Source: Krischvirus LF73P4
Direction: 5' to 3' (one strand)
Sequence record: OZ035795.1
DNA length: 64,000 bases
This document shows, in pieces, positions 10,779 to 47,200 of the stretch. Under the pieces are notes generated by a model. The model had not been told where the DNA came from, made no database searches, and saw only the letters and a program-made list of their open reading frames with translations. The first letter of the stretch is position 1. The number at the start of each line of letters is the position of its first letter. A program made the translations under genes and the position numbers.

Positions 10779-10779
10779 A

Positions 10780-20272: not shown

Positions 20273-20275
20273 ATT

Positions 20276-21596: not shown

Positions 21597-21910
21597 TGCA
21601 TGTATTTGCTGTATGTTATCGTGATAAAGACGGATTCTTTCAATACTCAGTGGACGCGAAGGGTCGCGTCCTAACTTGCGAAACACATGATGCTGCGTTA
21701 GCGTCAATGTGTGATCAGATAGATTATTGTGAGAGTCTATTGGCAGGTGAACCGAAATACAAGGTTGTACCTAAACGAAAATTTGGCATAATCCGGTCTT
21801 CTGAAATTGTTCGGGATGGTATCGAATATAAAATTCCTGAATATGAAAAAGAACGGGTACGGCGAGAACTCAATACTATCTGTGTTCGCAAGGTGAGGAT
21901 TTTAGGATAA
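21596..21910 (+). CDS. hypothetical protein
   Basis: 104-aa ORF overlapping flanking genes by 1 nt. Confidence 0.45.
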   Translation: MHVFAVCYRDKDGFFQYSVDAKGRVLTCETHDAALASMCDQIDYCESLLAGEPKYKVVPKRKFGIIRSSEIVRDGIEYKIPEYEKERVRRELNTICVRKVRILG

Positions 21911-23301
21911 TGAGCAGAGTATTAACTTTCGATATGTTAACAGACGGGCAAAAACATGCTTTTGATGTTCTAATGAAACGCATTGAACAAAAGAAGCATA
22001 CAACTGTCCGTGGTGCGGCGGGTACTGGTAAAACCGCAATGATGAAATTCATTGTTCAGGAAATGGTCCGCCGTGGTGTAACTGGTGTGGTTTTGGCAAC
22101 GCCTACCCACCAGGCTAAAAAAGTTTTGAGTAAAGCGGTAGGTCGTCAAGCATTTACTTTACATGCACTACTGCGACTAAACCCGACCAACTATGAAGAT
22201 ACTCAAGTATTTGAGCAAAAAGATACTCCTAAGCTAGATGATGTTCAGATCATCATTGTTGATGAAGCGAGTATGGTCGATAAGAAACTATTTGATATTC
22301 TCATGAAGAGTATCAACGGTCGAATTGTTGTTATTGCAGTTGGCGATCCGCACCAGTTACGACCAGTTGATCCGAGCGGTGCAACGTCGATCTCTCCTTT
22401 CTTCACGGATGAAAATTTTCAAAACGTGGAGTTGACAGAAATTAAACGATCTAATGCACCGATCATTGATGTGGCGACCGCTGTCCGTAATGGTAAATGG
22501 GTATTCGAAAAGCAGTGCGGCAACGAGGGTGTATTCCATAGCTCAACTCTGCCGGAGTTTATGAAGCATTATTTCGAAACCGTTAAAACGCCGGAAGACC
22601 TGCTAGAAAACCGTATTCTGGCCTACACTAACAAGAGCGTCGAAAAACTCAATGAAATTGTGCGTAAGCGCGTTTATAACACCGATGAACCAGTGATTGT
22701 AGATGAAATTCTGGTTACTCAGGAACCATTGATCGAATATCTGCGAGATGAACGCGGGAAGAAGATTCCCAATGTTATTTTTAACAATGGTGAGATGATC
22801 CGAGTTAAAGAGGTCATCCCGCGCGAATTTACATTACGTTGCACGGGGGTAGATCCGCAACCAGTTTTAGGCTATACTCTGAAAGTGGAAAGCGTCGATG
22901 ATGACGAAGACAAAGAAATCCTAAATCAGAAAGTCGGTTTAGATGCAGTCGGAATCACTACAGATAAACCAGATTTAGTAGAAATCAACATTCTGACAGA
23001 ACAACGTCAGAAGAACATTTTCTCTATCTATCTGAATACGGTCGCCGGACAATATCGCGAAATGAAGAAAGAGAATCCAAAATTTAAACCAGATTGGGAT
23101 TCCTTCTGGACGATGAAGCGTATGTTCTTGAATGTAAAAGCATTACCAGCTTGCACCATTCATAAGTCACAAGGGATCAGCGTAGACCGCGTGTTCCTGT
23201 ATACTCCTTGCATGTGTACAGACAATGTTGACTTTGAATTGGCAATGCAGTTATTATATGTGGGTGTTACCCGTGCGCGGTATCGAGTAGACTATATTTG
23301 A
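21910..23301 (+). CDS. dda: Dda DNA helicase (SF1)
   Basis: 463 aa; F..LT.GQK.AF...MK.I..KKH; Walker A GAAGTGKT; ATPTH.AKK.LSK; KRSNAPIIDVATAVRNGKW; LLYVGVTR.RY match recalled T4 Dda. Confidence 0.9.
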   Translation: MSRVLTFDMLTDGQKHAFDVLMKRIEQKKHTTVRGAAGTGKTAMMKFIVQEMVRRGVTGVVLATPTHQAKKVLSKAVGRQAFTLHALLRLNPTNYEDTQVFEQKDTPKLDDVQIIIVDEASMVDKKLFDILMKSINGRIVVIAVGDPHQLRPVDPSGATSISPFFTDENFQNVELTEIKRSNAPIIDVATAVRNGKWVFEKQCGNEGVFHSSTLPEFMKHYFETVKTPEDLLENRILAYTNKSVEKLNEIVRKRVYNTDEPVIVDEILVTQEPLIEYLRDERGKKIPNVIFNNGEMIRVKEVIPREFTLRCTGVDPQPVLGYTLKVESVDDDEDKEILNQKVGLDAVGITTDKPDLVEINILTEQRQKNIFSIYLNTVAGQYREMKKENPKFKPDWDSFWTMKRMFLNVKALPACTIHKSQGISVDRVFLYTPCMCTDNVDFELAMQLLYVGVTRARYRVDYI

Positions 23302-23311
23302 GGAAATTATT

Positions 23312-23479
23312 ATGATTATGCGAAGTATCCCAGAATTTAATGATGTGACGGTAAGCCGTCACAATGGAACTGTTACCATGTGCTTTAGATGGGGTCTATA
23401 CGGCTGGAACGTGTCCGGCGATAGTGAAGCTGCATGTATCAATAAAATGATCGAGCATTTCACTAAGCGAGGGTTTTGA
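23312..23479 (+). CDS. hypothetical 55-aa protein
   Basis: Not in track; ATG 23312 after AGGAAA. Confidence 0.3.
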   Translation: MIMRSIPEFNDVTVSRHNGTVTMCFRWGLYGWNVSGDSEAACINKMIEHFTKRGF

Positions 23480-23480
23480 T

Positions 23481-23723
23481 ATGGTTGTTATTAATAATGT
23501 GGCTAATGTAATACATCTACAATCAATTGTCGCGTGGAACCGTCAAAAGATTCATTGTGACTATGCACAACATGTAATGAATTTTAACAACAAAGTACGC
23601 GCATACATGGCAACGGAACGACTGTTAACCGATAATTACGGTAACGGGATTATTGATTGTAGCGGTTTCATTCTGGATAAAAACGATCTGGAGTTGTTCC
23701 GGCATATCGCGGAGGATATTTAA
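23481..23723 (+). CDS. hypothetical protein
   Basis: 80-aa ORF. Confidence 0.4.
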   Translation: MVVINNVANVIHLQSIVAWNRQKIHCDYAQHVMNFNNKVRAYMATERLLTDNYGNGIIDCSGFILDKNDLELFRHIAEDI

Positions 23724-23724
23724 A

Positions 23725-24393
23725 ATGCTTCCAGTGGATTTAATGATTGACTTTGAAAGTTTAGGTTATCCGCCCGATGGGGCGGTTATCAATATGGCGG
23801 CAATCGGATTTAAAGAAGATCCGCACAATCCACCTACATTTAAAGAACTGGTCGACAATTCCTTTCTGGTAAAATTTGATATTCCTTCCCAGAAAGGTGT
23901 AAGGGTGTTTGATCATGGTGTGGTTGAATGGTGGAAGAATACCGCCTCAGAAGGTATGAGAAAGCAATTAATCACAAATGGTACGGAAGTATCAACTAAA
24001 GAAGGTTTAGCGCGTTTTAACGCATTCTGTGAAGCCGTAGGGGTAGATCCGGTTAAATCCGTAATGTGGTCACGCGGTAATGCGTTTGATATTCCGTTAC
24101 TAGTTGATATGATCCGCCGTGCACACAATACACGAGAGACGTTCAGCCTTGAACCTGTGCGATTCTGGAATATCCGAGATGTTCGCACCGCCATTGAGCG
24201 TACATTGATGCATCGCGGGATGTGTGAGTGTCCGTTACCAATGGGTACGCTAGATGGTTTTATCGCACATGATGCAATTCATGATTGCGCTCGCGATATT
24301 CTTATGCTAATCTATGCACAACGTTATGCTATGGGTCTGGAAGACCTACCAGAAAATCCAGATCCAAATTCAGTTAAGAAACAAAGGGGATAA
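23725..24393 (+). CDS. dexA: exonuclease A DexA
   Basis: ATG 23725 after GGAGGA; IDFE..G; KFD...QKG.R.F....VEWWKN; FD.P.LVD.IRR; FW..RD.RT; GTLDGF.AHD.IHDCA.DILM..YA.RYAMGLED match recalled T4 DexA. Confidence 0.85.
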   Translation: MLPVDLMIDFESLGYPPDGAVINMAAIGFKEDPHNPPTFKELVDNSFLVKFDIPSQKGVRVFDHGVVEWWKNTASEGMRKQLITNGTEVSTKEGLARFNAFCEAVGVDPVKSVMWSRGNAFDIPLLVDMIRRAHNTRETFSLEPVRFWNIRDVRTAIERTLMHRGMCECPLPMGTLDGFIAHDAIHDCARDILMLIYAQRYAMGLEDLPENPDPNSVKKQRG

Positions 24394-24394
24394 T

Positions 24395-24568
24395 ATGCCA
24401 TTATACGATTATTCTTGTGAAGAACACGGTCAATTTCAGAAAATCCGCAAAATTTCCGAGCGTGAAAAGGCAGAATGCCCTGAATGCGGTAAAGAATGCA
24501 AACAGGGATTGACTGCCCCGCGCGGGATTAATGGCGGGTACTATGATAAAAATGTGCGCGTGTCATGA
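24395..24568 (+). CDS. zinc-ribbon protein (FmdB-like)
   Basis: MPLYDYSCEEHGQF....CPECGK; ATG 24395 after AAAGGGGA, 1 nt after dexA stop. Confidence 0.55.
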   Translation: MPLYDYSCEEHGQFQKIRKISEREKAECPECGKECKQGLTAPRGINGGYYDKNVRVS

Positions 24569-24666
24569 GTCATATACTTGACAATCACTCAATTTTAATA
24601 TGATTGTTGCAGCCGTCTTTGTGGCGGTTGCAGTAAGTTATGGTTATGTTATGAAGAGGTTTAATA

Positions 24667-26490
24667 ATGAGTGAGTTTCGCATTTTATCTGATCGTGAGC
24701 ATGTCCTTAAGCGTGCAGGAATGTATATAGGATCAACAACTTACGAAGAACATCAACGTTTCCTGTTCGGTAAATGGACAAAAATTTCATATGTTCCTGG
24801 ACTGGTGAAAATCATTGATGAGATCATCGACAACTCTGTAGACGAGGCGATTCGCACTAATTTTGAATTTGCCAATGTGATTAGCGTCGATATCCAAAAC
24901 AATATTGTTACGGTAACAGACAACGGTCGCGGTATTCCTCAACATATGGTTACTACCCCAGAGGGCACGCAGATTCCGCAACCTGTAGCCGCATGGACAC
25001 GAACAAAAGCAGGGTCTAACTTTGATGATACCAATCGATTAACGCAAGGGATGAACGGTGTAGGGTCGTCGTTGTCAAATTTCTTTAGCGATTGGTTTAC
25101 TGGTGTGACCTGTGACGGCGAAACAGAAATGACCGTTCAATGTACAAACGGTGCTGAAAATATCACATGGTCATCGAAACCATCAAAATTGAAGGGAACA
25201 AAGGTTACATTTTGCCCAGACTTCGACCACTTCGAAGGTTATATGATGGACAACTCTGTTTTAGATATTGTTCATGATCGTCTGCAATCATTGAGCGTAA
25301 TATTTCCTAAGATCACGTTTAAGTTTAATGGTAAACGTATTGTTAGTAAGTTCAAGGATTATGCTAAACTATACAATGATGATCCGTTTGTCATTGAAGA
25401 TAAAAACTTTTCACTTGCCCTAGTTCCTGCGGTCGAGGGAGAAGGTTTTAAATCAGTATCCTTTGCTAATGGTCTGTTTACCAAAAACGGGGGAACACAC
25501 GTAGACTACGTGACAGATGATCTTTGTGAAGAGATTGTAAAACGAATCAAGAAAGAATATAAGGTTGATGTTACTAAAGCTGCGGTTAAATCTGGATTGA
25601 CCTGTATTCTTATTGTTCGTGAATTGCCTAACCTTCGTTTTGATTCACAGACAAAAGAACGATTGACTAATCCAACTGGTGATATCAAGCGTCATATTGA
25701 TCTTGATTTTAAAAAGCTGGCTAAAGTCATTGCGAAGAAAGAAAACATTATCATGCCTATTATTGCTGTAGTCCTGGCACGCAAAGAGGCAGCAGATAAA
25801 GCGGCAGCGACTAAGGCAGCAAAGGCAGCGAAACGGGCTAAGGTAGCAAAACACGTTAAAGCTAACCTTATTGGAACTGACGCAGAAACTACCCTGTTTT
25901 TGACGGAAGGTGATTCCGCGATCAACTATCTGATCTCTGTACGTGATCAAGATTTACATGGCGGTTTCCCGTTGCGAGGCAAAACTCTTACAACGTGGGA
26001 ACAACCGGAGGCAAAGATCGTTAAGAACGCCGAAATTTTTAACATCATGGCGATCACTGGCTTGCAATTTGGTGTTGATGCATTGGAAGTTATGCAATAC
26101 AAAAATATTGCGATTATGACAGACGCTGATACTGACGGGATCGGGTCTATTAAACCTAGTCTGATCTCTTTCTTTGCTCGTTGGCCTGAATTGTTCGAAG
26201 ATGGACGAATCCGGTTTATCAAAACACCTATTATCATTGCGGAACCAAAGAAAGGTGATGATGTTCGATGGTATTATGACCTAGAAGATTTTGAGAACGA
26301 CCGAGATAATATCAAAGGTTACAACATTCGATATATCAAAGGTTTAGCATCGCTCACAGAATCAGACTATCATCGCGTGATCAACGATCCTGTCATGGAG
26401 ATCATCACGTTACCGGAAAACTATAAAGAGCTATTCGATTTGCTCTATAGTGAAGATTCAGACATGAGGAAGGCATGGATGGCGTCATAA
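24667..26490 (+). CDS. 39: DNA topoisomerase II large subunit gp39 (GyrB-like ATPase), apparently fused 39+60
   Basis: 607 aa; GHKL ATPase motifs (IIDEIIDNSVDEA, TVTDNGRGIP), TOPRIM-like C-terminal part; length exceeds recalled T4 gp39 alone. Confidence 0.85.
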   Translation: MSEFRILSDREHVLKRAGMYIGSTTYEEHQRFLFGKWTKISYVPGLVKIIDEIIDNSVDEAIRTNFEFANVISVDIQNNIVTVTDNGRGIPQHMVTTPEGTQIPQPVAAWTRTKAGSNFDDTNRLTQGMNGVGSSLSNFFSDWFTGVTCDGETEMTVQCTNGAENITWSSKPSKLKGTKVTFCPDFDHFEGYMMDNSVLDIVHDRLQSLSVIFPKITFKFNGKRIVSKFKDYAKLYNDDPFVIEDKNFSLALVPAVEGEGFKSVSFANGLFTKNGGTHVDYVTDDLCEEIVKRIKKEYKVDVTKAAVKSGLTCILIVRELPNLRFDSQTKERLTNPTGDIKRHIDLDFKKLAKVIAKKENIIMPIIAVVLARKEAADKAAATKAAKAAKRAKVAKHVKANLIGTDAETTLFLTEGDSAINYLISVRDQDLHGGFPLRGKTLTTWEQPEAKIVKNAEIFNIMAITGLQFGVDALEVMQYKNIAIMTDADTDGIGSIKPSLISFFARWPELFEDGRIRFIKTPIIIAEPKKGDDVRWYYDLEDFENDRDNIKGYNIRYIKGLASLTESDYHRVINDPVMEIITLPENYKELFDLLYSEDSDMRKAWMAS

Positions 26491-26491
26491 T

Positions 26492-27055
26492 ATGAAAAGT
26501 GCGAAATTTTGGAATACTGAAATTCAAGAGGAATTAAAACGAAGATTTGGACACACGGAAGGTGTTCTATATCACAAAACAAATAGTCCGTCTTTTAATG
26601 GTCTGCCAGAGGGATATTTCTACCAAGTCGGTGATAAAGTAAAAACAAAAAAGTTAAATTACGGTCATTTGGCAATAGATGTTTACAATAAGGTTAAAAA
26701 GAGAACATCTACATATCTTGTACATAGAATTGTCTGGTTTCTTGAATATGGAACACAGGTTAAGGTAATAGACCACATAGACGGGAATCCAGAAAACAAC
26801 AATCCACCAAATTTACGGGAGGCAACACAACAACAAAACATGTACAATAAAAAGAAAATGGACGGGTGCACGAGCATATATAATGGTGTTACTCATCGCA
26901 AAGGATCTAGCAAAAGACCGTGGCAAGCACAAATAAGGATAAACGGATACAGAAAATACATAGGATCGTTTGCTACTCAGGAGGAAGCCGCTAGAGCATA
27001 TGATGAATATGCAAAAATTCATCATGGGGAGTTTGCATCTTTAAATTTTAGTTGA
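26492..27055 (+). CDS. HNH-AP2 homing endonuclease
   Basis: 187 aa; HNH segment HRIVWFLEYG...IDHIDGNPENNNPPNLREATQQQN followed by AP2-like YNGVTHRKGS.RPWQAQIRINGYRKYIGSFATQEEAARAYDEYA; starts 1 nt after gp39 stop. Confidence 0.75.
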   Translation: MKSAKFWNTEIQEELKRRFGHTEGVLYHKTNSPSFNGLPEGYFYQVGDKVKTKKLNYGHLAIDVYNKVKKRTSTYLVHRIVWFLEYGTQVKVIDHIDGNPENNNPPNLREATQQQNMYNKKKMDGCTSIYNGVTHRKGSSKRPWQAQIRINGYRKYIGSFATQEEAARAYDEYAKIHHGEFASLNFS

Positions 27056-27091
27056 CACACAAGGGAGATTCTCTATAATGGGAGTCTCCCT
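27052..27091 (+). promoter_or_regulatory. early promoter TTGACA-N16-TATAAT with AGGGAGA/TCTCCCT stem around the -10
   Basis: Immediately after HNH gene stop. Confidence 0.5.
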
Positions 27092-27113
27092 TTTCTTTTA
27101 TGAGGATTTAACG

Positions 27114-27413
27114 ATGAGCAAAAAGAATAACATGATGATGAGTATGGCAAAGTTCATGGAAGCAGACCTGATCAAAAATACAGTACAGCATGAACGCCAG
27201 CGAGAAGCCGCAGTGATTGCAGAACAAGGTTTTCAGGTTATCCGCAATCCACCTAAAGATACGATTAAATCGAAATACAGAGACGATCTGAAAGACCATG
27301 AAGTACGGGAACTGGTTAATGATCTGCGTGACATTGCCATCAAATATCATGGTTATCAGTGCTTACGAGAACTGATCGCAGAGCGAGTAATGGATGCCCT
27401 GAAAAAAGATTAA
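27114..27413 (+). CDS. hypothetical protein
   Basis: Track ORF 27078..27413; ATG 27078 lies inside the -10 hexamer, ATG 27114 after GAGGA preferred. Confidence 0.45.
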   Translation: MSKKNNMMMSMAKFMEADLIKNTVQHERQREAAVIAEQGFQVIRNPPKDTIKSKYRDDLKDHEVRELVNDLRDIAIKYHGYQCLRELIAERVMDALKKD

Positions 27414-27420
27414 AAATCTG

Positions 27421-27455
27421 TTGACGCTGGATCGGGGATATATCATAATGTCCCC
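27421..27455 (+). promoter_or_regulatory. early promoter TTGACG-N17-CATAAT with GGGGA/TCCCC stem around the -10
   Basis: Hexamers and inverted repeat seen directly. Confidence 0.45.
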
Positions 27456-27479
27456 ATCGAAAACAAAAGGTTGACTTAT

Positions 27480-27674
27480 ATGAAACCGTTTAAGAATGAA
27501 GAAACTCAAAAATTTTGTGAAAAAATTGCAGAAATCTACTTGACAGGGGAAAAGGAAAAAGCTAATATTATGTTCAAAGAGTCGGTTTCTATGATGAAAG
27601 TAGCACGCTGGGAACTGATCGCAATGCAAGACCAAATTCGTTATCTAGTAACAAAGGAGAATCAAAATGCGTAA
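27480..27674 (+). CDS. hypothetical protein
   Basis: Track ORF 27471..27674 (TTG); ATG 27480 after AAAAGG. Confidence 0.4.
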   Translation: MKPFKNEETQKFCEKIAEIYLTGEKEKANIMFKESVSMMKVARWELIAMQDQIRYLVTKENQNA

Positions 27675-27861
27675 CCATTACATCGAACTGGCAAGCCGTA
27701 AAGTTTCAGACCTGAAAGGCGTAATTGCTTACTATGAAGAAGTCCTGAAAAACGAAATTGCGGAGTGGGAACGTAAAGAATACAGCAAGTGCTTAGAGAA
27801 AAGCCGCGCTGAACTGGTTGACGCAGAAGCCCATCTGCAATGGGTGATTGAAAATGTATAA
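27667..27861 (+). CDS. hypothetical protein
   Basis: 64-aa ORF overlapping upstream stop. Confidence 0.4.
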   Translation: MRNHYIELASRKVSDLKGVIAYYEEVLKNEIAEWERKEYSKCLEKSRAELVDAEAHLQWVIENV

Positions 27862-27871
27862 GGAGTAGAAA

Positions 27872-28129
27872 ATGAGTCGAAGTTTTGATTTTCTGATCGC
27901 CAAGTGTCATCGAGAAAAGAAATCGATGGACCTGTTTATGAAATGTTTGAGGTATGAATATGCACACCTTCGTAAACACAAAATTGATCCGCAAGTTTCC
28001 TACGAAAACATCAAGAAATATGCGAAAGAAGTGATTGACAACGATTGCACCGTGACATATAATGCGTTTATTGATTTATGGGCGTGGGATGTAATCTACG
28101 CAGAGATGGACAAAGAAGATTTTAATTAA
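27872..28129 (+). CDS. hypothetical protein
   Basis: 85-aa ORF. Confidence 0.4.
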   Translation: MSRSFDFLIAKCHREKKSMDLFMKCLRYEYAHLRKHKIDPQVSYENIKKYAKEVIDNDCTVTYNAFIDLWAWDVIYAEMDKEDFN

Positions 28130-28143
28130 GTGAGGATTATATT

Positions 28144-30252
28144 ATGAAAATGCATATCGATAATGAAGAAGTATTTGGCAGTGACCTGAGCGGTGCGGTT
28201 GATTTTTCACTGAAAGCAAGTAGCAAGGCTTTTATGGTGCTTTCTAAGAACACTTATCAATATTGTGAGCGTGCTTGCGTCCGTGAGTATTCGTGCAATG
28301 CTACCGACACTCACAAAGAAGCCGGAACCTTAGATCGTCCGTTTGATATTCATTTACCGACTGCAATCGAACCGTATTTTTCTGTGCGTGATTATGGTAC
28401 GGGTATTCCGTCTAAGAAAGAATTAGAACAACTGTTTACGGTTTACTTTGAATCAACAAAAGACCAGACTAATGATTATATCGGATCTTTTGGTTTAGGT
28501 GCGAAGTCTGCTTATAGCTATACTGACACCTTTACAATCGTAAACTACTACAATGGTCGCGCTTATGGCTTTACTGCATTTGTGCAAAACTCTATGCCGA
28601 AAATGGTGCAGATTTTCGACGAACCGACCTATGAAGACAACGGTCTGAAAATCACTATTCCGGTGAAAGAAAAAGACATTCAGACATGGCATCGAGAAGC
28701 ACAATTTGTACTTCGTCATTTTGGGGAACACAAACCTAATATCAATGCAATCGAAATTAATTATTTCCCTAGCTTTGATAATTATTATGTTTGCAATGGG
28801 CGTGATAACGATTCCTATGTAGTATATGCAATCATGGGTAAGATCCAGTATCCGATCCCGTATGAATATGTTCGCGGAACATGGTTAGAAGCTGTAAACC
28901 GCCAGCACCAGACCATTTACATTAATTTTGATTTGGGTGATCTGGACCTGATGCCATCGCGCGAAGAAGTTCACTTGTCAATCGAGACTAAAGCGAACAT
29001 CGAAAAACGTATTGCAGAAATCAATGAAATGATGTTGGAAAAGGTTAAAGAAAAGATCGCCAACATTAAAACAGAGCGTAAACTTGCGCAATTTATGAGC
29101 GAGTATTCATCGACTCAACGCAATATTATTAGCAAGATGGGTAAGATCGGGCAGTGGGATGATCCGGTAGCAATCTATAATAAGTTTGTGAATGCGGGTA
29201 AAGATTCGCCTAGTGACGTAGAAGGTCAGGTGTATACTCTGTATCGTACTCGTCACACAATCAGTAAATTGCGCCCTGCTTTCGTTAGCAGTCAATACAA
29301 CATTACGCATTTTGTATGGATGCATAAAGAAGATATTCTGTGTGTAATTGATGATACCGATAAACCGAAACTGCGTGCACTGACTCTTAACGGCATGGTC
29401 CAGGAATACGGAATCAATAAAAAGGTACTGGTGTTCCGTCAGCGCAACGAAAAACATATGGAGACTTTCGAGTACATCAAACAGTATTATGATGAATCTG
29501 AAATGACCGTGATTAAGGTATCAGAGGCCGATGATCTGCGTGCTAAAGCAGTTAAACCGGAAAAGACCGAGCGTACACAACGTGAAGCGACTCCCAAGCT
29601 GCCTAACGTGTATATCATGGAAAAGATTGGTGACAGTTGGCATAAAACCAGCCATCACATGAAAGCGGCAGAGATTCGCGAGTTATCAGGCTTGCACATG
29701 TTCCGCGTAGGTGATGCATTCGAAAGCCGTAGTCGTAAATCGATCTATAGTGAAAATACATTACACACGGCGCTTGACTACTTCGGGGTAACAAAGTATA
29801 TTATTACTCGAAACGAGACACAAAAATATCTCGTTGACGAACAATTGGAATGTGCGCTAGAATTTGTTCGCGGTAAGCTGGCTGGTCTGGCTAAGAAGGT
29901 TAAGACCAATCATCTGGGGTATGGCGAATATCTGGGTGTGATCACTATGTTGTTTCATGACGATGAACTAGAACGCTGTGTTCCAGAATTTATTGACAGA
30001 CTGTACGGTCGTCATTATAATAAAGAGGTTTCCAAGTTACTCCTTCGTACTCGTTGGATTATGGACGAAGAAACTAAAAAGATCTGTGATGAAAAATTCA
30101 CGGCAGCAAACGAACGAATTAAAGCAGTTTGTGCGAAGTTTAAAGAGAATAGCCCGTTACTGTATGATATTGTAGATAACTGGTATCGTATTCTGCATAA
30201 CGACAAACGCGCACAAGACTTTATGAAACTGGTTAAGAATGTTAAATTTTAA
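28144..30252 (+). CDS. rIIA: rIIA protein (histidine-kinase-like ATPase fold)
   Basis: 702 aa; NDYIGSFGLGAKSAYSYTDTFTIVNYY and the Bergerat-fold segment match recalled T4 rIIA; followed by rIIB. Confidence 0.85.
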   Translation: MKMHIDNEEVFGSDLSGAVDFSLKASSKAFMVLSKNTYQYCERACVREYSCNATDTHKEAGTLDRPFDIHLPTAIEPYFSVRDYGTGIPSKKELEQLFTVYFESTKDQTNDYIGSFGLGAKSAYSYTDTFTIVNYYNGRAYGFTAFVQNSMPKMVQIFDEPTYEDNGLKITIPVKEKDIQTWHREAQFVLRHFGEHKPNINAIEINYFPSFDNYYVCNGRDNDSYVVYAIMGKIQYPIPYEYVRGTWLEAVNRQHQTIYINFDLGDLDLMPSREEVHLSIETKANIEKRIAEINEMMLEKVKEKIANIKTERKLAQFMSEYSSTQRNIISKMGKIGQWDDPVAIYNKFVNAGKDSPSDVEGQVYTLYRTRHTISKLRPAFVSSQYNITHFVWMHKEDILCVIDDTDKPKLRALTLNGMVQEYGINKKVLVFRQRNEKHMETFEYIKQYYDESEMTVIKVSEADDLRAKAVKPEKTERTQREATPKLPNVYIMEKIGDSWHKTSHHMKAAEIRELSGLHMFRVGDAFESRSRKSIYSENTLHTALDYFGVTKYIITRNETQKYLVDEQLECALEFVRGKLAGLAKKVKTNHLGYGEYLGVITMLFHDDELERCVPEFIDRLYGRHYNKEVSKLLLRTRWIMDEETKKICDEKFTAANERIKAVCAKFKENSPLLYDIVDNWYRILHNDKRAQDFMKLVKNVKF

Positions 30253-30263
30253 GAGGTGATATT

Positions 30264-39192: not shown

Positions 39193-39849
39193 TTATCTAA
39201 TCCTTCCGAGGATTCTGGCAGATTGATTGCAAAGAGTATCTAAATTCTCAATGTCAATATCCGGTTTATTCTTCCATGCAATGGAGATACTACCAGAATA
39301 GACATTATCGAGATTGAATATAGGGCAAGAATACATAAACCCTATATCGATACTCTCTAATTTCTTTTCTCTTGATGGAATATACTGGAAATCTTTATCG
39401 GTAAAATATGATTTACCTAAAAGATGCCTACGATATTCTTCACTCGTTTTATTGATAGGGAATCCGCCTAAATTTTTTTCATCGATTGTATGCGGTAACT
39501 TTCCTTCATATGCCACCAAATCAACAAAATAGTTTAGGTTTTTCGGACGAAAACTAAAAACAGCAGAAAAATCGGCATCAGCCGACACATGAACTATCTG
39601 TAACTGCTCCTGTGCTGCATTATCAAAATTGCGGTCTTTCTCTACCTGGAGAACGTGAGCATAAGTCTCATAACGAGTCTCTTTATAAAGCGCAAATAAC
39701 TCGTTTTTACTATAAACGACAAATGCTAATATAGACAACACGACGGCAGCAAAAACACGAAGTACGAGCAACTCCGTGCTTTTAGTTGTGAAAATAGCGC
39801 GCAGGACATTTGAGATAGCAAAGTCTTTCCCTTTTTCAGAAACTTGCAT
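39193..39849 (-). CDS. t: holin T
   Basis: 218 aa; N-terminal TM segment; YETY; EQLQIVHVSADADFSAVFSFRPKNLNYFVDLVAYEGKLP; MYSCP.FNLDN.Y.G.I; ARILGR match recalled T4 holin. Confidence 0.85.
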   Translation of the reverse strand: MQVSEKGKDFAISNVLRAIFTTKSTELLVLRVFAAVVLSILAFVVYSKNELFALYKETRYETYAHVLQVEKDRNFDNAAQEQLQIVHVSADADFSAVFSFRPKNLNYFVDLVAYEGKLPHTIDEKNLGGFPINKTSEEYRRHLLGKSYFTDKDFQYIPSREKKLESIDIGFMYSCPIFNLDNVYSGSISIAWKNKPDIDIENLDTLCNQSARILGRIR

Positions 39850-39882
39850 ATAATGCCCTAAGATAACTATGACAGTGTACTC

Positions 39883-40122
39883 TTATTTAGGTAGTTGACT
39901 ATCACTATTTTTATTTTGCTCGTTGCTATCTTCTGACTGATCTTTATTAAACTCCTTATAAAGTTCTTCCACAAAACGATCATCAATTGGCGTATTGGTA
40001 TAAGCCGCAAGACGACGAGCGCAATAGAAGAAAATTTTAGTGAGCATCTTTTCACTAATTAACTTTGACAATAGTTTCATTCCGAAATTAGACAAAGCAC
40101 CAATGACGATATTATAGACCAT
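39883..40122 (-). CDS. hypothetical protein between gene 38 and t
   Basis: 79-aa ORF with AAGGAG RBS on minus strand; hydrophobic/amphipathic N-terminus, acidic tail. Confidence 0.4.
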   Translation of the reverse strand: MVYNIVIGALSNFGMKLLSKLISEKMLTKIFFYCARRLAAYTNTPIDDRFVEELYKEFNKDQSEDSNEQNKNSDSQLPK

Positions 40123-40185
40123 AGCCGTTTCTCCTTAGTAGTTCCCTTCCGTGGGAGTTTTCCTTAATTCTTTTTATAATTGCGT

Positions 40186-40968
40186 CTAAACAGCCGGTCC
40201 GTAAATAGCTCCGCGATTTTGCCACGTTGGAGAAGACCCTATAACAGCATATCCAGAATCGCCGCCATTATATTCAGATCCTTGACCACGAATATTACAT
40301 CTACCTCCTGCGGCGCCTACCTCACCACCGCTTCCACCATTATAGATACCGTTCACGGACCCCGAACCGGGCGCATAAAGAGTACCAGCAGTTGCGCCTG
40401 ATTGCATATCAATAGATCCGCCCGGCGCACCAAACGGACGCCCACCGCCACCGCCAAAGGTTAATCTCATTTGTGAAAAAGGAGAATAATACCCGCCACC
40501 GCCACCGCCACCGCCACCTGCAATAGCTCCACCATTATTAATTCTTAGTCTCCCACCAATATCATTTTGAATACAATGCCCCCCGGCTGATCCAGGACCA
40601 TTGCTACCGCCATTCCCGCCACGACCATACATCGTTACGCCATGTATATTCAACTGAACATATTCATTCGGTGTATCTCCGTACATAAAGAATAAAGGAA
40701 CATCTTTAGAATATGATACTAAATCTCCAGTGATATTAAACACTATAGGTGTACTACCTGCTTCAAAGCATCTATCACGGAACCACTGACCGTTGAAGTT
40801 ATGGTCTGCACCAAGTGTATGAATAATTTCTCGCGAGCGACCTGCAAATTGACTCATCCAGCAAGGAACACCCAATCTTAATTGACCAGCCGCTTGACTC
40901 ATCCATCGTTGTCCTGTTTCATTTGCGGCTGAACTTCCAATCCAACCAGGAACACCAACTACTGCCAT
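40186..40968 (-). CDS. 38: tail-fibre adhesin gp38 (T2-type, glycine-rich motifs)
   Basis: 260 aa directly downstream of gene 37; conserved N-terminal part then poly-Gly blocks ([30 protein letters not shown]) separating short variable segments. Confidence 0.75.
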
Positions 40969-40976
40969 AATTTATA

Positions 40977-41002
40977 CTCCAAAGGGGGCAACGCCCCCTT
41001 GT
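40977..41002 (-). terminator. hairpin between gene 37 and gene 38
   Basis: AAGGGGGCAACGCCCCCTT palindrome in 36-nt intergenic spacer. Confidence 0.35.
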
Positions 41003-41004
41003 TG

Positions 41005-43785
41005 TTAGAATTTAAAATATTTACTAATTTTGCGAGCAATTTTAGTAAAGAAAGGAGTTTTCAATTCTTTAATTTCTTCACTCATTTCCTGAATAGCCTT
41101 AATTAAAAGAGCATTCACTGCCGAGTTAGAAATTGTCAGAACATCAGATCCATCAACTTCAACTTTAGATACAGCTTCCGGCAATTCTTTTTCAAGATCC
41201 TGAGCAATAATACCAGCTTCACGTTTAATCACACTACGATCTTTAATAGACTTAACTTTATCGTAAGTATAAACTTTCAGACGGCATACTTTTTCAAGTG
41301 CTCCGTTTTCTAACTCTTCTTTATTAATCTTAAGACGGGAGTCAGAACGAATATACACATCGCTAAAGCTACCATTTCCTGGTGTATAAAAGAACCCATC
41401 ATGATGGAATTCAAACACAGCTTGTGGGTGTCCAGCATCAGGAGAAGCCTCCGTGGATCCGACACGAATGATTGCTTGCCCCCACTGTGATGGAATACGA
41501 CGCATACCAAAGTCAACAGCGGTGCTATATCCTTGATTGGTTATAACGCTTCTTGCTTTAAGAATAGGATAATAACTATCTTGACCAACATAACCATGAT
41601 CAACGAATAATGGAGCTTCTACTCGCCATTGGTTGCCCCAATCACCTGGTTGTCTGGCAACCCAACTTGCACCATTGATATACATACGATCGCGGTTAAC
41701 GTTAACCATTAAGGTATTTTGCGGGTTTAAAGATATCTCGCCAGAATTTGTAATATAAATTGCAGAATTACTAGCATAACTAAAAAACCCTAATCCGTTA
41801 TCAGCGCCTCCTTTCCCTATATACCAATTATTATTACCATCACAACTACCCAACAAATAAACCGAATCTCCAGATGACGGAGCATTCAAAACTATTGCGT
41901 CCGAACCACGATTAACAGTTATTTTATCGGAAGATTCTATTTGACCAAAGAATTTAGTTTTAATTGCACCAGTCGCTAAAGTACGTTCAGTGGAAAAATG
42001 AGCGCCTTTGCTATCTTCTAACTGAATAATGTTATCACGAGCGTTATTGCTATCACCCCAATGGTTAAATTTAAAATAATCTCGTGATCCTAAACGTCCG
42101 GCGTCAAAAGTCATCAAGCCTTTCATGTTAATATCACCACCAAAAAATGCGGTGAGAGAATCACGTTTTAATTTTAAAACGTTAGCACCACTAGTACCAC
42201 CCAAAGTAACATCACCAGTTCTTAATTCATAACGGAAAGGTCTATTTGTATTAAAGTTTCCATCTTGATCATTTTCGTCGGTGGAAAGAATATAAAGACT
42301 CTCTCCATCATTACGTAAAAATGCACCAAATTTTCCGCCATACATACGGAATGCATTCAACGAGCGGAATTTAACTTCTGTTTTAAATGTGGTAGTGTTA
42401 TTAAGGTTAACAGTAGAGTTAAAGTTAACTGCGCCATTAAAATCTTGTTTAGCAGTCCAAGTATGTGATCCGTCTTCAAGAACAACACGGCGAACTGTAC
42501 AAGTTCTATTTCCCGGATTACCAGCAACACGAACGACAAAATAACGGTAGTTTGTCTGGGATACAGTACCACGCCAAACCTGAACAGTACGCCCTGTGCC
42601 AGTGTGTTCGCTAGGACCGACAGAAAACATAACCAAGTTTCCGTCAATCGCACCCCAATCCATATTTGCTGGCATGTTCTTTATTTTGTTCAAAGGAACA
42701 CTAAACATACTACCAGGGACAAAATCAAAGGTTTGCCAGTCTAGCTCCGCTAATTGAGATTTAACACCACCCATACCCAGAGTGATCGGCATAGAATAGG
42801 ACGTATATACTTCGTACCAATTTCCCCAGATGTTATTTGTCATCGCACGTTCAAACACGCGAGATCGCGTAGTTGCACCCGTTCCTGCGGTAGTGAAACG
42901 TTGGAAAATAGCGGCACCGGAAGCACGCTGTTTAACCTCAAGCAATCCGGTCATCTCAACCGGAACACCTTCTGCAACTGGACGGTTAATAACGGCATCA
43001 GTCCCTAAAATGTTATACAAGCCAGGAGAACGAAAATTATTAAGATCCCCGTCATAGAATGTGTTTGGAGTAACCATACCTACTTGTTGCCACGGTCCCC
43101 AATTCGGAGCTTCTGGATCCCATGCACCAGCAAGACAACGAACATATACAACACCCATTCGGGTAGTATAACGTTGCGTGCGAGAATAGTTACCACCTTC
43201 ATAAATTTCTAAAAGACCTTGCGCGAGACCACCTTCTTCTGGGTAATTTCGAGAAAATGATGCAATGGAACTTAAACTATTTCGCCATAACCCAAAATGA
43301 GAAGCATCACCTAAAGTATTCAAGTCTAGTGTAGTTGATAGTGGACGTGTGCCAGTTTGAATATTGCGCCACGGACCCCATGGACCATCTACGCCATTCC
43401 ATTTAGCAGACAAAGAACGGATATAAACGTTACCAGACCGAACAGTATAACGCTGAGTGCCAGCAAATTGACCAGCCACAAATACTTCTAATACACCTAC
43501 AGCATTCTCTTCTGGGAATTTATTTGCTGGCTGCGCATTTGTTGAAGTTGATTTAGACCAAACGCCAGTAAATTTACCAGTAGGTCCATAATTATCTAAA
43601 TTTGCATCAGATGGCAACTCACCGCGAAAGTGTCCCAAAGTAATTACATTATTGCTGTCATCTTTTGTATATAGTTCTCGATCCGCTAGGTTAATAGCAA
43701 GTTCACCCGGAGTTAGAATATTCGCATCCGGCTTGCGACCTGCCGTACTTGTTCTTTTAAATTGGATTCTCTGTAAATCTGCCAT
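41005..43785 (-). CDS. 37: long tail fibre distal subunit gp37 with C-terminal intramolecular chaperone domain
   Basis: 926 aa; N-terminus MADLQRIQFKRTSTAGRKPDANILTPGELAINLADRELYTKDDSNNVI matches recalled gp37 N-terminus; C-terminal ...RSDSRLKINKEEL... carries the SD.R.K motif of S74-type auto-cleaving chaperone domains. Confidence 0.8.
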   Translation of the reverse strand: MADLQRIQFKRTSTAGRKPDANILTPGELAINLADRELYTKDDSNNVITLGHFRGELPSDANLDNYGPTGKFTGVWSKSTSTNAQPANKFPEENAVGVLEVFVAGQFAGTQRYTVRSGNVYIRSLSAKWNGVDGPWGPWRNIQTGTRPLSTTLDLNTLGDASHFGLWRNSLSSIASFSRNYPEEGGLAQGLLEIYEGGNYSRTQRYTTRMGVVYVRCLAGAWDPEAPNWGPWQQVGMVTPNTFYDGDLNNFRSPGLYNILGTDAVINRPVAEGVPVEMTGLLEVKQRASGAAIFQRFTTAGTGATTRSRVFERAMTNNIWGNWYEVYTSYSMPITLGMGGVKSQLAELDWQTFDFVPGSMFSVPLNKIKNMPANMDWGAIDGNLVMFSVGPSEHTGTGRTVQVWRGTVSQTNYRYFVVRVAGNPGNRTCTVRRVVLEDGSHTWTAKQDFNGAVNFNSTVNLNNTTTFKTEVKFRSLNAFRMYGGKFGAFLRNDGESLYILSTDENDQDGNFNTNRPFRYELRTGDVTLGGTSGANVLKLKRDSLTAFFGGDINMKGLMTFDAGRLGSRDYFKFNHWGDSNNARDNIIQLEDSKGAHFSTERTLATGAIKTKFFGQIESSDKITVNRGSDAIVLNAPSSGDSVYLLGSCDGNNNWYIGKGGADNGLGFFSYASNSAIYITNSGEISLNPQNTLMVNVNRDRMYINGASWVARQPGDWGNQWRVEAPLFVDHGYVGQDSYYPILKARSVITNQGYSTAVDFGMRRIPSQWGQAIIRVGSTEASPDAGHPQAVFEFHHDGFFYTPGNGSFSDVYIRSDSRLKINKEELENGALEKVCRLKVYTYDKVKSIKDRSVIKREAGIIAQDLEKELPEAVSKVEVDGSDVLTISNSAVNALLIKAIQEMSEEIKELKTPFFTKIARKISKYFKF

Positions 43786-43852
43786 TTTATAAAATCCTTA
43801 ACGGTTGTTAGAATAATATTATTTAGAAAAGCGGGGATTATCCCCGCTAGAA

Positions 43853-45343
43853 TTAGAAAGTACCAAAATCAATTACCGCATTAAGCGGAACAGCGCCAAC
43901 ATCATCAGGAGTTGGTTTGTGTCCTTCGTGGTATAATTCAAATGTATCGGTGTCCTGAGTATTGTTGCGTGATTTAACGAAAATAATTTTAGAATCATGT
44001 GTGATGCCTAGTTTCTCGTGCGCTTTAATATCACTAACACGATGAATCATTGCTGTGCCATCTAAGCTATTAAGTCCAGCGTAGCAATTATCACCATTAT
44101 AGTTAGCTTTTGCGGTACGAACGCCGTTTGCAGCGGGAACTGTCAAAGCACCTCTCATGGTATCGCCAGTCACATTAACATAGCGAGCATCAGCCAATTT
44201 ACGGTGATCTACATAGTTCCATGCGGTCCATGATTCATTAGAACAAGAACGCCAGCACATCGGATGATCAATAGATTCAGGATAGTATACCTGAACAATT
44301 CGACGAGTACCGACCGCATCTTCTGGGCGATATACCATCAAAACGCCGTTATAATAGCTATCAGACGGTTTATTAGTACCTGATCCAGCATTTTCCACAC
44401 GATAGATACCGCGATTAATAAGAGTGTTCCAATCAACGTTTCCAATGATTGTTGGATTTGCTACCATTGATTTTTTCTCAAAGTAGCTCAAACGAACCAA
44501 TTCATTAGGACCAGCAGGATCGTTTGTCGCCAACATTCTAGGCGCTTGCAAGTTACCTTCCATAATATCACCAGCACGTTTAACCTGTGCATCATTGGTG
44601 ACATTACCTAGTCCAACATCGGCTTTAGTCGGTTTATTGTTGGTGTGGTAGAATCTACCTGCCTTGCCATTAACAGAAATTGTCGGCTCGTTTTTGCTAC
44701 TGAATGCCAAAGTATCAAGACTATTTCCAAAATAAATGGCATTAGAATCGAAAGCAATGAAACCACGATCCCGCGCAAGTATTTTCGAATTAACATCAAG
44801 TTTAAATGTAGCCGTGTTTAAATTATACGTTCCCGTGAGAGTATCACCGCGACGAGACACCAAATCCAAATCATTGTTTGTCGGCTTATTAACAGGACTA
44901 TAGACGCGTTGACCAGTGTCTTTAATGGTTGTCCCTTCGATGGTCCCTTTAGTTTTAAAATCACCTGTGGTAGTGTCAATATAAGCCATGATAACATCAT
45001 CACGAGCATTAACAAAACCAATAGATTTCCACGAATGCAAACCCCAACTTACACCATCAAAGTTAGCCGCATCGCTCTTTCCTTTAAAGATCCCGTTCTT
45101 TTTGGTTTCTCCACCGGATGCGCTACCTACGCTTAAACCTTCCTCAAAATGGACCAGTTTCTGAAATGTACCACCCTCAGATGCACTAACAGCATCAAAA
45201 TCGGCAGCCGAAGGTTTATCAAAAGCGGTATAGATTTTATGACCTTTATAGAAAAGCTGATCACCCGCTGGCTGGATCGTCAAGTTTCCTTGCGTCCAAA
45301 TGGGAGATCCGCCTACAGTAGATCCATGTTTCAAATCTGCCAT
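43853..45343 (-). CDS. 36: long tail fibre connector gp36-like protein
   Basis: 496 aa upstream of 37 on minus strand; N-terminus MADLKHGSTVGGSPIWTQGN resembles recalled gp36 N-terminus; longer than recalled T4 gp36. Confidence 0.55.
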   Translation of the reverse strand: MADLKHGSTVGGSPIWTQGNLTIQPAGDQLFYKGHKIYTAFDKPSAADFDAVSASEGGTFQKLVHFEEGLSVGSASGGETKKNGIFKGKSDAANFDGVSWGLHSWKSIGFVNARDDVIMAYIDTTTGDFKTKGTIEGTTIKDTGQRVYSPVNKPTNNDLDLVSRRGDTLTGTYNLNTATFKLDVNSKILARDRGFIAFDSNAIYFGNSLDTLAFSSKNEPTISVNGKAGRFYHTNNKPTKADVGLGNVTNDAQVKRAGDIMEGNLQAPRMLATNDPAGPNELVRLSYFEKKSMVANPTIIGNVDWNTLINRGIYRVENAGSGTNKPSDSYYNGVLMVYRPEDAVGTRRIVQVYYPESIDHPMCWRSCSNESWTAWNYVDHRKLADARYVNVTGDTMRGALTVPAANGVRTAKANYNGDNCYAGLNSLDGTAMIHRVSDIKAHEKLGITHDSKIIFVKSRNNTQDTDTFELYHEGHKPTPDDVGAVPLNAVIDFGTF

Positions 45344-45376
45344 AAAGTAACCTCAAAAATTAGTTATAGTTCCGAG

Positions 45377-45384
45377 TATTTATA
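45377..45384 (-). promoter_or_regulatory. T4-type late promoter TATAAATA (minus strand) upstream of gene 36-like
   Basis: Plus strand reads TATTTATA about 34 nt upstream of the minus-strand start at 45343. Confidence 0.45.
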
Positions 45385-45553
45385 GAATGTTAACAAAATA
45401 TCGCTTCGCGACGTGCCGTAGGCACTGACTACTTTTTAACCGAAACAAATTTTCTATTATTCTAAAGATCTTTCTTCGTTTTGGTTATGTTTTAACCAAT
45501 AACTATATTTTTATACAGTAATAAATAAAACGGGTACTATACGAGGACTTCTT

Positions 45554-45808
45554 ATGACAGAAGACATTTTGTTAAAACTCTATGATCGTCTGGATAACGA
45601 ATTAGCAACATTGCGGGGTGAAGTTCTCTATTTGTCTAAATGCAATACAGATCTGCTTAAGCAGATTGCAGAAAGGGATGATCAAATAAAATCCCTTTCA
45701 GGTGCATTACGTGATCGCGACAAGGCATTAGAGATTTTACAGCGTGTTACCAATAAGGAAGAATTAAAAGACTTCTTACATGGTTATGCTCATGCCATCG
45801 ATCTATAA
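45554..45808 (+). CDS. hypothetical coiled-coil protein
   Basis: 84-aa plus-strand ORF between two minus-strand blocks; preceded by 210-bp AT-rich spacer, followed by bidirectional terminator. Confidence 0.4.
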   Translation: MTEDILLKLYDRLDNELATLRGEVLYLSKCNTDLLKQIAERDDQIKSLSGALRDRDKALEILQRVTNKEELKDFLHGYAHAIDL

Positions 45809-45811
45809 TAA

Positions 45812-45838
45812 AAAAGCCCGTCAATGACGGGCTTAATG
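45812..45838. terminator. bidirectional terminator between ORF 45554..45808 and gene 2
   Basis: AAAAAAGCCCGTCAATGACGGGCTTAATGTT. Confidence 0.55.
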
Positions 45839-46660
45839 TTATGCATCCTTCCAAACTTTCCTTGCGTCGTATTTCTTGCCTTTTGACATAAACTGATATG
45901 TAGGCATATAGATAATATTGCTCCAGTCTTTCGGGCTAATCTCAACAAGTTTTGTTTTAATGTGTCCCGGTAGATATGCTTTGATCATGTGATCACTTCC
46001 ACGCATACCTTTTACATCGCTCCATTTGATTTTTAAGCGTGTTTTATTGCTCAAGGTAGGAGTAGATGCATATTGCTTTAAAAGTGCCTCTAAAAACTGC
46101 TGACGGGCTTTAGGCGTTACATAGTGTAAGTTAAGACCCAGCATTACAGTATTACCCGCCTTTGTCTTAGAATCACCCAGACAAATGATCAGCGGGAAAA
46201 CATCCCAATATGGTAAAGTGTCTTTATACTTCGCATCATACATAAAGGTATAGATTCGCCCTACTTGCGGTTTTACAATCTGGTGTCCCTTTATTCCCGC
46301 TTTTATTGTTTTAGTAAACCACTCCTGTGATTTTTCTTTAGGACGACTCTTTGATACAGCACGCATAGACGCACGAAAATCATTAATCATCATCATTGCG
46401 CGTTGCTGCTTATTGAGACCCTTTGCACCTTTCCCTTTTAGTTTTTCAACTTCTATTGCTGTTTTAATTTCGCTGGCATAACGAGACATACTTTTAGTGA
46501 AAGTCGCATAGGCTATTCCCTTAGAATCTGCAAATGCTTTAGCTGTCATGCCTTTGGCTTTTGCTTTCGCAAATTCTACACCCAATTCGACCCACTGTTT
46601 AGACTTTCTTTTTTGGGGAGACGGCTTTTCGTCTTCTGTGATTATTTCAAATACGCTCAT
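45839..46660 (-). CDS. 2: DNA end-protector protein gp2-like
   Basis: 273 aa, adjacent to gene 4 on the same strand as in T4; size matches recalled T4 gp2; basic N-terminus. Confidence 0.6.
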   Translation of the reverse strand: MSVFEIITEDEKPSPQKRKSKQWVELGVEFAKAKAKGMTAKAFADSKGIAYATFTKSMSRYASEIKTAIEVEKLKGKGAKGLNKQQRAMMMINDFRASMRAVSKSRPKEKSQEWFTKTIKAGIKGHQIVKPQVGRIYTFMYDAKYKDTLPYWDVFPLIICLGDSKTKAGNTVMLGLNLHYVTPKARQQFLEALLKQYASTPTLSNKTRLKIKWSDVKGMRGSDHMIKAYLPGHIKTKLVEISPKDWSNIIYMPTYQFMSKGKKYDARKVWKDA

Positions 46661-46671
46661 AATATTATCCT

Positions 46672-47145
46672 CTATTTGTTAAGCCCTTTAAAGCCAAACA
46701 CTTTCTTTAATGCATGTTCGGTGATGATCTTAAACTCCATGTTATGCTTTTGGCATAATTTCACGGCAGCTAACCATTTTTCAGTATTTTTTGTGTATGT
46801 CCATACTTCATGCATATATCGTTGCTTTGTCTTCGCGGTCATTCTTTTTGGCTTTTCCGGTGGCCTTGTCTCTTTAGCTGGTTTAACTTCCCATAAATGC
46901 TCCTTGCCATCATCAAACTTAACGTAAAAATCCATAAAGTATCTGTGTCTTTTTCCGTCTGTTGATGACTCATAAGGAATTACTACGGTCTCAGATCCCC
47001 ATTTTGCAACTCTAGGATTGCGGTCTAGCCACTGCATGATCCATCTTTCCCAGCTTGAACGGTATGTGATCTTACGTATATCCCCTTTATACTTTTCCTT
47101 ATTCTCAGGAACATACTTGCCCTTATAAGTGTTAGATCCTCCCAT
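46672..47145 (-). CDS. 4: head completion protein gp4
   Basis: 157 aa; MGG.NTY.GKY.PEN..KY.GDI.KI.YRS.WER ... EVKP.KE..PP.KPKR matches recalled T4 gp4. Confidence 0.7.
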   Translation of the reverse strand: MGGSNTYKGKYVPENKEKYKGDIRKITYRSSWERWIMQWLDRNPRVAKWGSETVVIPYESSTDGKRHRYFMDFYVKFDDGKEHLWEVKPAKETRPPEKPKRMTAKTKQRYMHEVWTYTKNTEKWLAAVKLCQKHNMEFKIITEHALKKVFGFKGLNK

Positions 47146-47160
47146 TTTAGCACCCTTTAT

Positions 47161-47168
47161 TATAAATA
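47161..47168 (+). promoter_or_regulatory. T4-type late promoter TATAAATA upstream of gene 53
   Basis: Exact octamer about 33 nt before ATG 47201. Confidence 0.55.
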
Positions 47169-47200
47169 CATAATACTATTTATCAATTGAGGGTGCTAAA

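Follow-up and report, generated by a model that had tools for sequence, protein, structure and literature searches.

Why do the distal tail fibre genes of Krischvirus LF73P4 lie against the gene 2 and gene 4 block, and where in this genome are genes 34 and 35? The question is raised by a 64-kb stretch of sequence record OZ035795.1 (here called the window; all positions refer to it and are 1-based), in which gene 36 is followed, on the side where T4 has genes 35 and 34, by the genes for a DNA end protector, a head completion protein and the baseplate. The answer proposed here, with a rough probability of 0.5, is that the window holds one breakpoint of an ~87-kb inversion, produced by recombination in the phage, and that LF73P4 is, as far as can be judged by comparing sequences, otherwise an ordinary RB49-like coliphage. 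The breakpoint lies inside a 99-bp intergenic element (45401-45499), which was delimited by alignment and of which 37 copies were extracted. What is anomalous comes down to one inversion breakpoint in this inverted repeat, peculiar to a single genome record and possibly an artefact of assembly.

Placement in Krischvirus and the break in colinearity

The window was assigned by megablast to the genus Krischvirus (RB49/Phi1/JSE group; T4-like coliphages of the Straboviridae), and all megablast matches to its gp2 side are Krischvirus records. It has in common with the genus a nucleotide identity of 91-99% and full colinearity on each of its sides, a gp36 of 496 amino acids (aa), an 84-aa open reading frame (ORF84) beside gp2 and the 99-bp repeat pair. 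In comparison with RB49, used as the type phage, blastn gave 86-99% nucleotide identity in long colinear blocks on either side of one break. Over the whole window, positions 1-30252 are the reverse complement of RB49 30254..1, positions 30253-45499 are the reverse complement of RB49 164018..150000, and positions 45390-63920 correspond to RB49 62775..81292 in the forward direction. The single break in colinearity is located at 45390-45499, where the meeting blocks overlap by 110 bp, the overlap being the repeat. From gp53 and gp5 onward, the window is colinear with RB49 up to its end. Its GC skew tracks the direction of transcription only and gives no information on the rearrangement.

In RB49, KMB43, G5211, FL04, Phi1, E26 and MIZ5, the fibre genes are ordered as in T4 (34-35-36-37-...-t), with a spacer of ~200 bp between 35 and 36. 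The same relatives have the order 1-3-ORF84-2-4-53-5, with a spacer of ~190 bp between gene 3 and ORF84, ~87 kb from the fibre genes and on the opposite strand. The window departs from this canonical Krischvirus order (34-35-36-37-(38)-t at one locus and 1-3-ORF84-2-4-53-5 at another), having gene 36 joined to ORF84-2-4. In the genus as a whole, genes 34, 35 and 36 are contiguous and gp3 adjoins ORF84 in all 58 deposited genomes and in ~25 further contigs, whereas in the window the gene-36 arm leads into the ORF84/gp2 arm. No homologues of gp34, gp35, gp3 or gp1 were found in the 64-kb window by tblastn with the RB49 proteins, the gp34 query giving just weak repeat-motif matches within the short tail fibre gene.

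An original prediction, made from the letters of the window, had already pointed to the lack of genes 34 and 35 upstream of gene 36 and to an order different from that of T4, with the 36-like gene abutting the gp2/gp4/baseplate block; the tblastn result and the single blastn break agree with it on both points. The distinct genome architecture that it proposed is not sustained, as the relatives have the T4 order. Nor is the order of the window the standard one of a described genus, since Krischvirus keeps 34-35-36-37-...-t, and a genus-level architecture was rejected with both RB49 and KMB43 in the T4 order.

The gene next to the break encodes gp36 (43853-45343, minus strand), a Krischvirus-type distal hinge connector of 496 aa recognized by homology to RB49 gp36 and by phrog_16472. 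Its RB49 homologue (RB49p250) has equal length and is 89.7% identical over the full length, and the window protein aligns with phrog_16472 from end to end (1-496/496), so that it is a genus-normal protein; phage KMB43 and Logan run ERR12949693 have the exact protein as well. The earlier identification of the 36-like protein as gp36 is correct in this respect, but its length, read as a sign of remodelling, is the normal one for Krischvirus, and the remodelled proximal fibre suggested along with it gives way to a standard Krischvirus gp36.

On the other side of the break, the 84-aa ORF (45554-45808, plus strand) had been taken for an orphan coiled-coil gene. It is the homologue of RB49p130 (phrog_17832, 2e-57) and adjoins gp2 in RB49, KMB43, G5211, more than 20 contigs and every relative examined; judged by this conserved place, it is a member of the gp2 block and no orphan insertion. 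The exact gp37, gp6 and gp7 of the window sit on a 163,088-bp NCBI contig, which is a genus-normal genome length. The rearrangement is therefore an inversion and not a deletion, with nothing substantial lost.

The 99-bp inverted element

In the relatives, the 99-bp element is located in the 35/36 spacer and in the gp3/ORF84 spacer, upstream of the gene 36 and gene 3 late promoters, respectively. The two copies are inverted relative to each other in 8/8 genomes from which both were fetched, those of RB49 being at 62785-62882 (+) and 150000-150098 (-). With blastn, the element was found solely in 58 Krischvirus records. It holds two small hairpins, TCGC-TTC-GCGA and GTGCC-GTA-GGCAC, and one short hairpin has a weak terminator-like tail. 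The folding signal is weak (z about -2), there was no match to an Rfam family, and a promoter scan gave no sigma-70-type promoter in 45401-45499. A limited check of the literature and of the record annotations found no earlier description of this inverted repeat. Its role is taken here to be that of an insulator or terminator-like module upstream of the gene 3 and gene 36 late promoters.

The two copies of a genome differ at 1-7 of 99 positions (eight genomes with both copies), and the longest identical run between paired copies is 33-53 bp. The same alternative alleles are present at both loci, at sites 45407, 45432 and 45488 and in the indel region 45453-45457. This is the pattern expected of occasional gene conversion in the past, and as such it indicates that the copies probably interact physically.

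The whole element of the window matches the KMB43 35-36 copy at 100% identity, KMB43 being the nearest relative for the fibre genes. The window has C at 45407, as found in 8/9 of the 36/35 copies vs 4/25 of the gp3/ORF84 copies, and C at 45454, as found in 7/9 and 5/25, respectively. The phages closest on the right-hand side, G5211 and MIZ5, have a gp3/ORF84 copy without C at 45454. An exchange, biological or computational, must be contained in 45420-45499, which is the longest stretch that the two copies can share exactly in this phage (≤80 bp). Because both C alleles are commoner at the 36/35 locus and the one at 45454 is lacking in G5211 and MIZ5, its probable place is 45456-45499, the ~44 invariant bases at the end of the element.

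Some further observations concern the element and its surroundings in the relatives. Outside the window, RB49 has two more degenerate tandem copies at ~97,500-97,800, between RB49p164 (DprA-like) and RB49p165, which retain the hairpin pair and the TTCTAAAGATCTTTCTTCGTTTTG core. A distant blastn search returned ~4 element sites per Krischvirus genome; therefore, the element is a small family and not one pair alone. In an ENA metagenome scaffold (L009, 9163-9260, a gp3/ORF84 copy), the loop of GTGCC-GTA-GGCAC reads TAC, the reverse complement, suggestive of a micro-inversion over the 5-bp stem or of conversion from the oppositely oriented copy. In two contigs (L029, 5838-6296, and L035), an HNH endonuclease gene lies directly left of the repeat, and Phi1 and others (L025, L026 and L027, ~6874-8080) have an ORF of 343-380 aa between ORF84 and gp2, with weak or faint CapR, DUF723 or DUF4379 matches. 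The gp3-ORF84-gp2 interval is an insertion hotspot in the relatives, and the window has neither the HNH gene nor the 343-380-aa ORF. Elsewhere in the window, positions 56422-56513 (after gp8) match RB49 34426-34519, an early-region spacer, over ~92 bp at 81% identity and in opposite orientation. This may be another dispersed intergenic repeat, perhaps similar to the promoter-early plus stem-loop (PeSL) cassettes.

Proposed origin by recombination between the repeats

The flanks of the window are colinear with RB49 up to a sequence that is found, in inverted orientation, at both RB49 loci, and the window is arranged as one junction of an inversion spanning 62.8-150.0 kb in RB49. Here it is proposed that the inversion resulted from a homologous exchange between the two oppositely oriented 99-bp copies, one in the 35/36 spacer and the other in the spacer between gene 3 and the 84-aa ORF. 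In a circularly permuted genome, this ~87-kb inversion would be equivalent to flipping the complementary ~76 kb. The exchange could have proceeded via T4-type UvsX/UvsY recombination, and the isomer would then have been fixed by plaque purification.

Both copies have the same polarity with respect to late transcription, the predicted order at each being a late operon and its terminator, then the element and, after it, a late promoter with its downstream genes. The preceding operons are 34-35, with a strong hairpin, and 4-2, with the hairpin at 45814-45834. Because the copies share this polarity, the exchange would merely swap the downstream partners. The window junction would accordingly be read as genes 4 and 2, terminator, element, late promoter, and genes 36, 37, 38 and t; the predicted reciprocal junction, outside the window, would consist of genes 34 and 35, terminator, element, late promoter, and genes 3, 1 and 57A. 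Genes 34 and 35 should in this case be found beside gene 3 at the reciprocal junction, elsewhere in the same genome. In the window, the repeat has the intact promoter of gene 36 on one side and the intact gp2 terminator on the other. Since the exchange leaves all genes, promoters and terminators unbroken, the inverted isomer should be viable.

Both parts of this proposal, the exchange at short homology and the viability of the product, have precedents. RB49 and Phi1 recombine short intergenic cassettes within one infection, less than 50 bp of homology being sufficient (PMC2839356), and in T4-related Campylobacter phages module inversions between repeats have been verified by polymerase chain reaction (PCR), with viability kept (PMC4546147). 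A wider form of the proposal, given just short of an even chance, is that Krischvirus conserves a 99-bp inverted pair upstream of the gene 3 and gene 36 late promoters, at which gene conversion and an occasional crossover would flip half of the genome with the transcription units unbroken, and that this isolate would have the first naturally occurring inverted genome isomer among T-even-type coliphages.

Uniqueness of the junction

When the flanks were scored over the 37 extracted copies of the element, 23 copies were found between gp3 and ORF84 and 10 between gp36 and gp35; two had an HNH insertion between gp3 and the element, followed by ORF84, and one, in a Logan contig (L007), had gp36 on one side and ended inside the element. 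The arrangement with gp36 on one side and ORF84 on the other was seen once (1/37), in the window only. Several results weigh against an inversion in the phage. The junction is present in 0/58 Krischvirus records, in which a 1.7-kb junction probe matches both halves by megablast, but never together, and it was not found in ~23 further long contigs nor in 2 IMG/VR contigs. No colinear match to the same probe was obtained by megablast in phages, E. coli genomes or plasmids.

Gapped exact patterns for the window junction and for the reciprocal junction gave no match in metagenome, genome and viral collections. These patterns do work on local sequences; however, the scans are weak negatives because a viral-contig control pattern also gave 0 and because both IMG/VR Krischvirus contigs are without the usual gp3-side flank, one having an HNH insertion and the other being the ECD7 record, whose gp2-side match is split by an annotated endonuclease. 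In addition, the break is at the only place where an assembler could have switched paths, and a neutral, readily arising inversion should have made both orientations common in the genus, which is not so.

Independent contigs of the same reads

Logan k=31 contigs of run ERR12949693, found by exact-protein look-ups, bear on the same point. Contig ERR12949693_5 (9,655 bp) is 100.000% identical to window 37853-45449 (7,597 bp compared) and ends at 45449, and contig ERR12949693_1 (52,078 bp) is 100.000% identical to window 48857-64000, its end being at 45470 by coordinates. The two ends equal 45419+30 and 45500-30, as a k=31 graph behaves at a two-copy repeat, position 45419 being a polymorphic base in the GTAG/GGAG hairpin loop and position 45500 the first base of the flank. 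From these ends, the exactly shared core is ≤80 bp in this phage, and the repeat is a genuine point of assembly ambiguity. Both arm contigs stop inside the repeat, which also counts against an inversion in the phage; since neither links the arms, these data cannot choose between a biological inversion and a mis-assembly. As the contigs that match the two arms at 100% come from the same run, the arms belong to one phage, and a chimera of two phages was rejected.

The other end of contig ERR12949693_5 is at ~35795, in a stretch with indels relative to RB49 (35258-36073), which suggests a further repeated intergenic cassette there that breaks k=31 assemblies.

Alternative explanations

The alternative that fares best is an assembly artefact, to which rather less than an even chance is given. 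The phage would be canonical, and an assembler, or manual or overlap-based finishing, would have come into the repeat along the gene-36 arm and gone on into the ORF84/gp2 arm, giving an in-silico inversion of what lies between the two copies. Such an error would explain a junction that is unique among 58 records and ~25 further contigs, with its breakpoint exactly in the only two-copy sequence joining these regions. The join lies inside a sequence that is repeated in the read set, and the independent assembly breaks there, with the two k=31 contigs stopping inside the repeat (45449 and 45470); however, assemblers facing an unresolved repeat normally break contigs and do not join the wrong arms. 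The size of the core also has to be considered, as ≤80 bp (33-53 bp in relatives) is below the length of usual Illumina reads and below the final k-mers of common assemblers, so that ordinary reads span it and a mis-join by a modern assembler is less likely. The identity of the 99 bp of the window to the KMB43 35-36 copy fits a switch of path within the ~44 invariant bases at the end, although the two arms are joined seamlessly and with every base in place, and the sequence shows no Ns, hybrid bases or frameshifts. The canonical orientation is in strong excess, which suggests that real inversions are rare or selected against, while reference-guided finishing would have restored the canonical order. 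With these points on both sides, inversion by recombination in the phage is kept as the favoured reading.

A mixed flip-flop population, in which continual recombination at the repeat keeps both isomers in the lysate (cf. chloroplast and herpesvirus genomes) and the deposited sequence is one path, is considered very unlikely. The polymorphisms common to both loci show recurrent exchange, recombination at short repeats is high in RB49/Phi1 (PMC2839356), and the repeat is collapsed in the Logan graph; on the other hand, an imperfect homology of 33-80 bp should yield low frequencies, and common isomers should break or invert many of the ~80 other assemblies seen here, all of which are contiguous and canonical.

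A genus-level alternative architecture or a programmed tail fibre switch (a remodelled fibre module, or a host-range segment similar to those of Mu Gin/P1 Cin) would suit a breakpoint directly upstream of the distal tail fibre genes, but its probability is negligible, as the genus has the T4 order and a gp36 of standard length and sequence, the inverted segment is ~87 kb or about half the genome and no fibre cassette, and 36-37-38 keep their promoter after the inversion with no alternative fibre C-termini brought in. An invertible segment of the Mu Gin/P1 Cin type was rejected, no recombinase, resolvase or invertase domain being present in the Pfam-annotated genes around either repeat copy in the relatives.

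Genes flanking the break

The identities of the genes were taken from Pfam hits precomputed on identical or near-identical genes of relatives, from PHROGs and from the RB49 and KMB43 annotation. Between gp36 and the 84-aa ORF there is a spacer of 210 bp (45344-45553) with 70.0% AT, against 59.4% for the window. It contains, as an exact consensus match, the predicted T4-type late promoter of gene 36, TATAAATA (45377-45384, minus strand), which sits just outside the 99-bp repeat on the gene-36 side; this promoter-side flank is kept in all the 36/35 spacers of the relatives. The AT-rich spacer and its late promoter are as the original prediction had described them, and so is the minus-strand order of the 36-like gene, 37, 38, a small ORF and t, converging on the early plus-strand block, which the ORF layout, Pfam and PHROGs support.

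In this block, gp37 (41005-43785, minus strand; PF21446 and PF13884; phrog_1699, 1.7e-184) is the long tail fibre's distal subunit, with 926 aa and a Peptidase_S74 intramolecular chaperone domain at its C-terminus. It is followed by gp38 (40186-40968, minus strand), a tail fibre adhesin of the T2 type with 260 aa (PF21721 Gp38_N and PF05268 GP38; phrog_2056, 6.6e-111). RB49 is without gp38 after gene 37, whereas the window has the T2-type gp38 directly after gp37. The gp37-gp38 cassette (40186-43785) has 86-88% nucleotide identity to the Tequatrovirus phages C2-3, Ptacy1496 and BW-1, a similarity that suggests the exchange of the receptor-binding module between genera. In RB49, a gp38-like ORF is found in the early region (RB49 45367-46143).

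Downstream of gp38, an ORF of 79 aa (39883-40122, minus strand) is homologous to RB49p252/dc5 by the RB49 annotation and is assigned to PF26925 and phrog_402 (function unknown). The final gene of the tail fibre and lysis block is that of the holin t, of 218 aa (39193-39849, minus strand), supported by PF11031 Phage_holin_T on the identical gene in Logan contig L007 and by the RB49 t annotation, which converges on plus-strand early genes ending at 39145. The last of these encodes 82 aa (38897-39145, plus strand), and homologous genes of KMB43 and Logan have a weak Pfam match to PF11195 (Tad2-like); it may encode an anti-defence protein of the anti-Thoeris kind.

On the right-hand side, a terminator-like hairpin with a T-run was found by consensus scan downstream of gp2 (45814-45834, minus strand), and a terminator is annotated at the equivalent place in G5211. 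The gene for the DNA end protector gp2 (45839-46660, minus strand) encodes 273 aa (PF26869 Phage_T4_gp2), and that for the head completion protein gp4 (46672-47145, minus strand) encodes 157 aa (PF08722), both in agreement with the RB49 annotation. The baseplate operon starts with gp53 (47201-47755, plus strand; PF11246) and continues with gp5 (47767-49566, plus strand; PF06714 and PF00959).

Implications

If the inversion is biological, a T4-type coliphage tolerates a reversed relative orientation of its early/replication and late/structural halves, and the 99-bp element mediates the flip. The pair of repeats would then also offer a simple system, with four possible junctions to follow by PCR, in which to measure ectopic recombination and the constraints on orientation in T4-like genomes. 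That true inverted isomers are nearly absent among ~80 genomes would imply that T4-like phages are under selection for how the halves of the genome are oriented to each other. If the inversion is an artefact, there is an error in a deposited 'complete genome', and the repeat pair is able to mislead the assembly of any Krischvirus. Under either reading, a novel fibre architecture can be set aside.

Comparison with known systems

The closest parallel to the proposed inversion is found in the group II Campylobacter phages, in which large blocks of a T4-related genome are inverted between repeated intergenic regions in CP21 relative to CP220/CPt10, with the genes intact, the phage viable and the arrangement verified by PCR (PMC4546147). 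In those phages, the repeats are of 1-2.9 kb, the inversions define whole subgroups and they are experimentally confirmed (PMC4546147), whereas here the repeat is 99 bp and imperfect and the inversion is seen in one record, known from its sequence alone.

As an assembly problem, the window resembles the repeat-induced mis-assemblies that arise by path switching in de Bruijn or overlap graphs, having its break at a two-copy repeat where an independent assembly of the same reads ends both arms. It differs from them in that the repeat is short (≤80 bp exact), imperfect and normally resolvable, and in that the sequence carries no mark of an error.

The element itself can be compared with the PeSL cassettes of RB49 and Phi1, which are also short repeated intergenic regulatory sequences with hairpins and substrates of homologous recombination (PMC2839356, PMC4122927). 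PeSLs combine sigma-70 early promoters that fit the consensus with GC-rich polyG/polyC stems, they are located in hyperplastic early regions, and they have been described as yielding insertions, deletions, replacements and mini-circles (PMC2839356, PMC4122927). By the definition of PMC2839356, the 99-bp element was rejected as a PeSL on account of the promoter scan, its short hairpins and its location among late genes. Unlike the PeSLs, it lies between late genes, has stems of only 4-5 bp and occurs as one inverted pair with degenerate copies, and the rearrangement that it would yield is an inversion.

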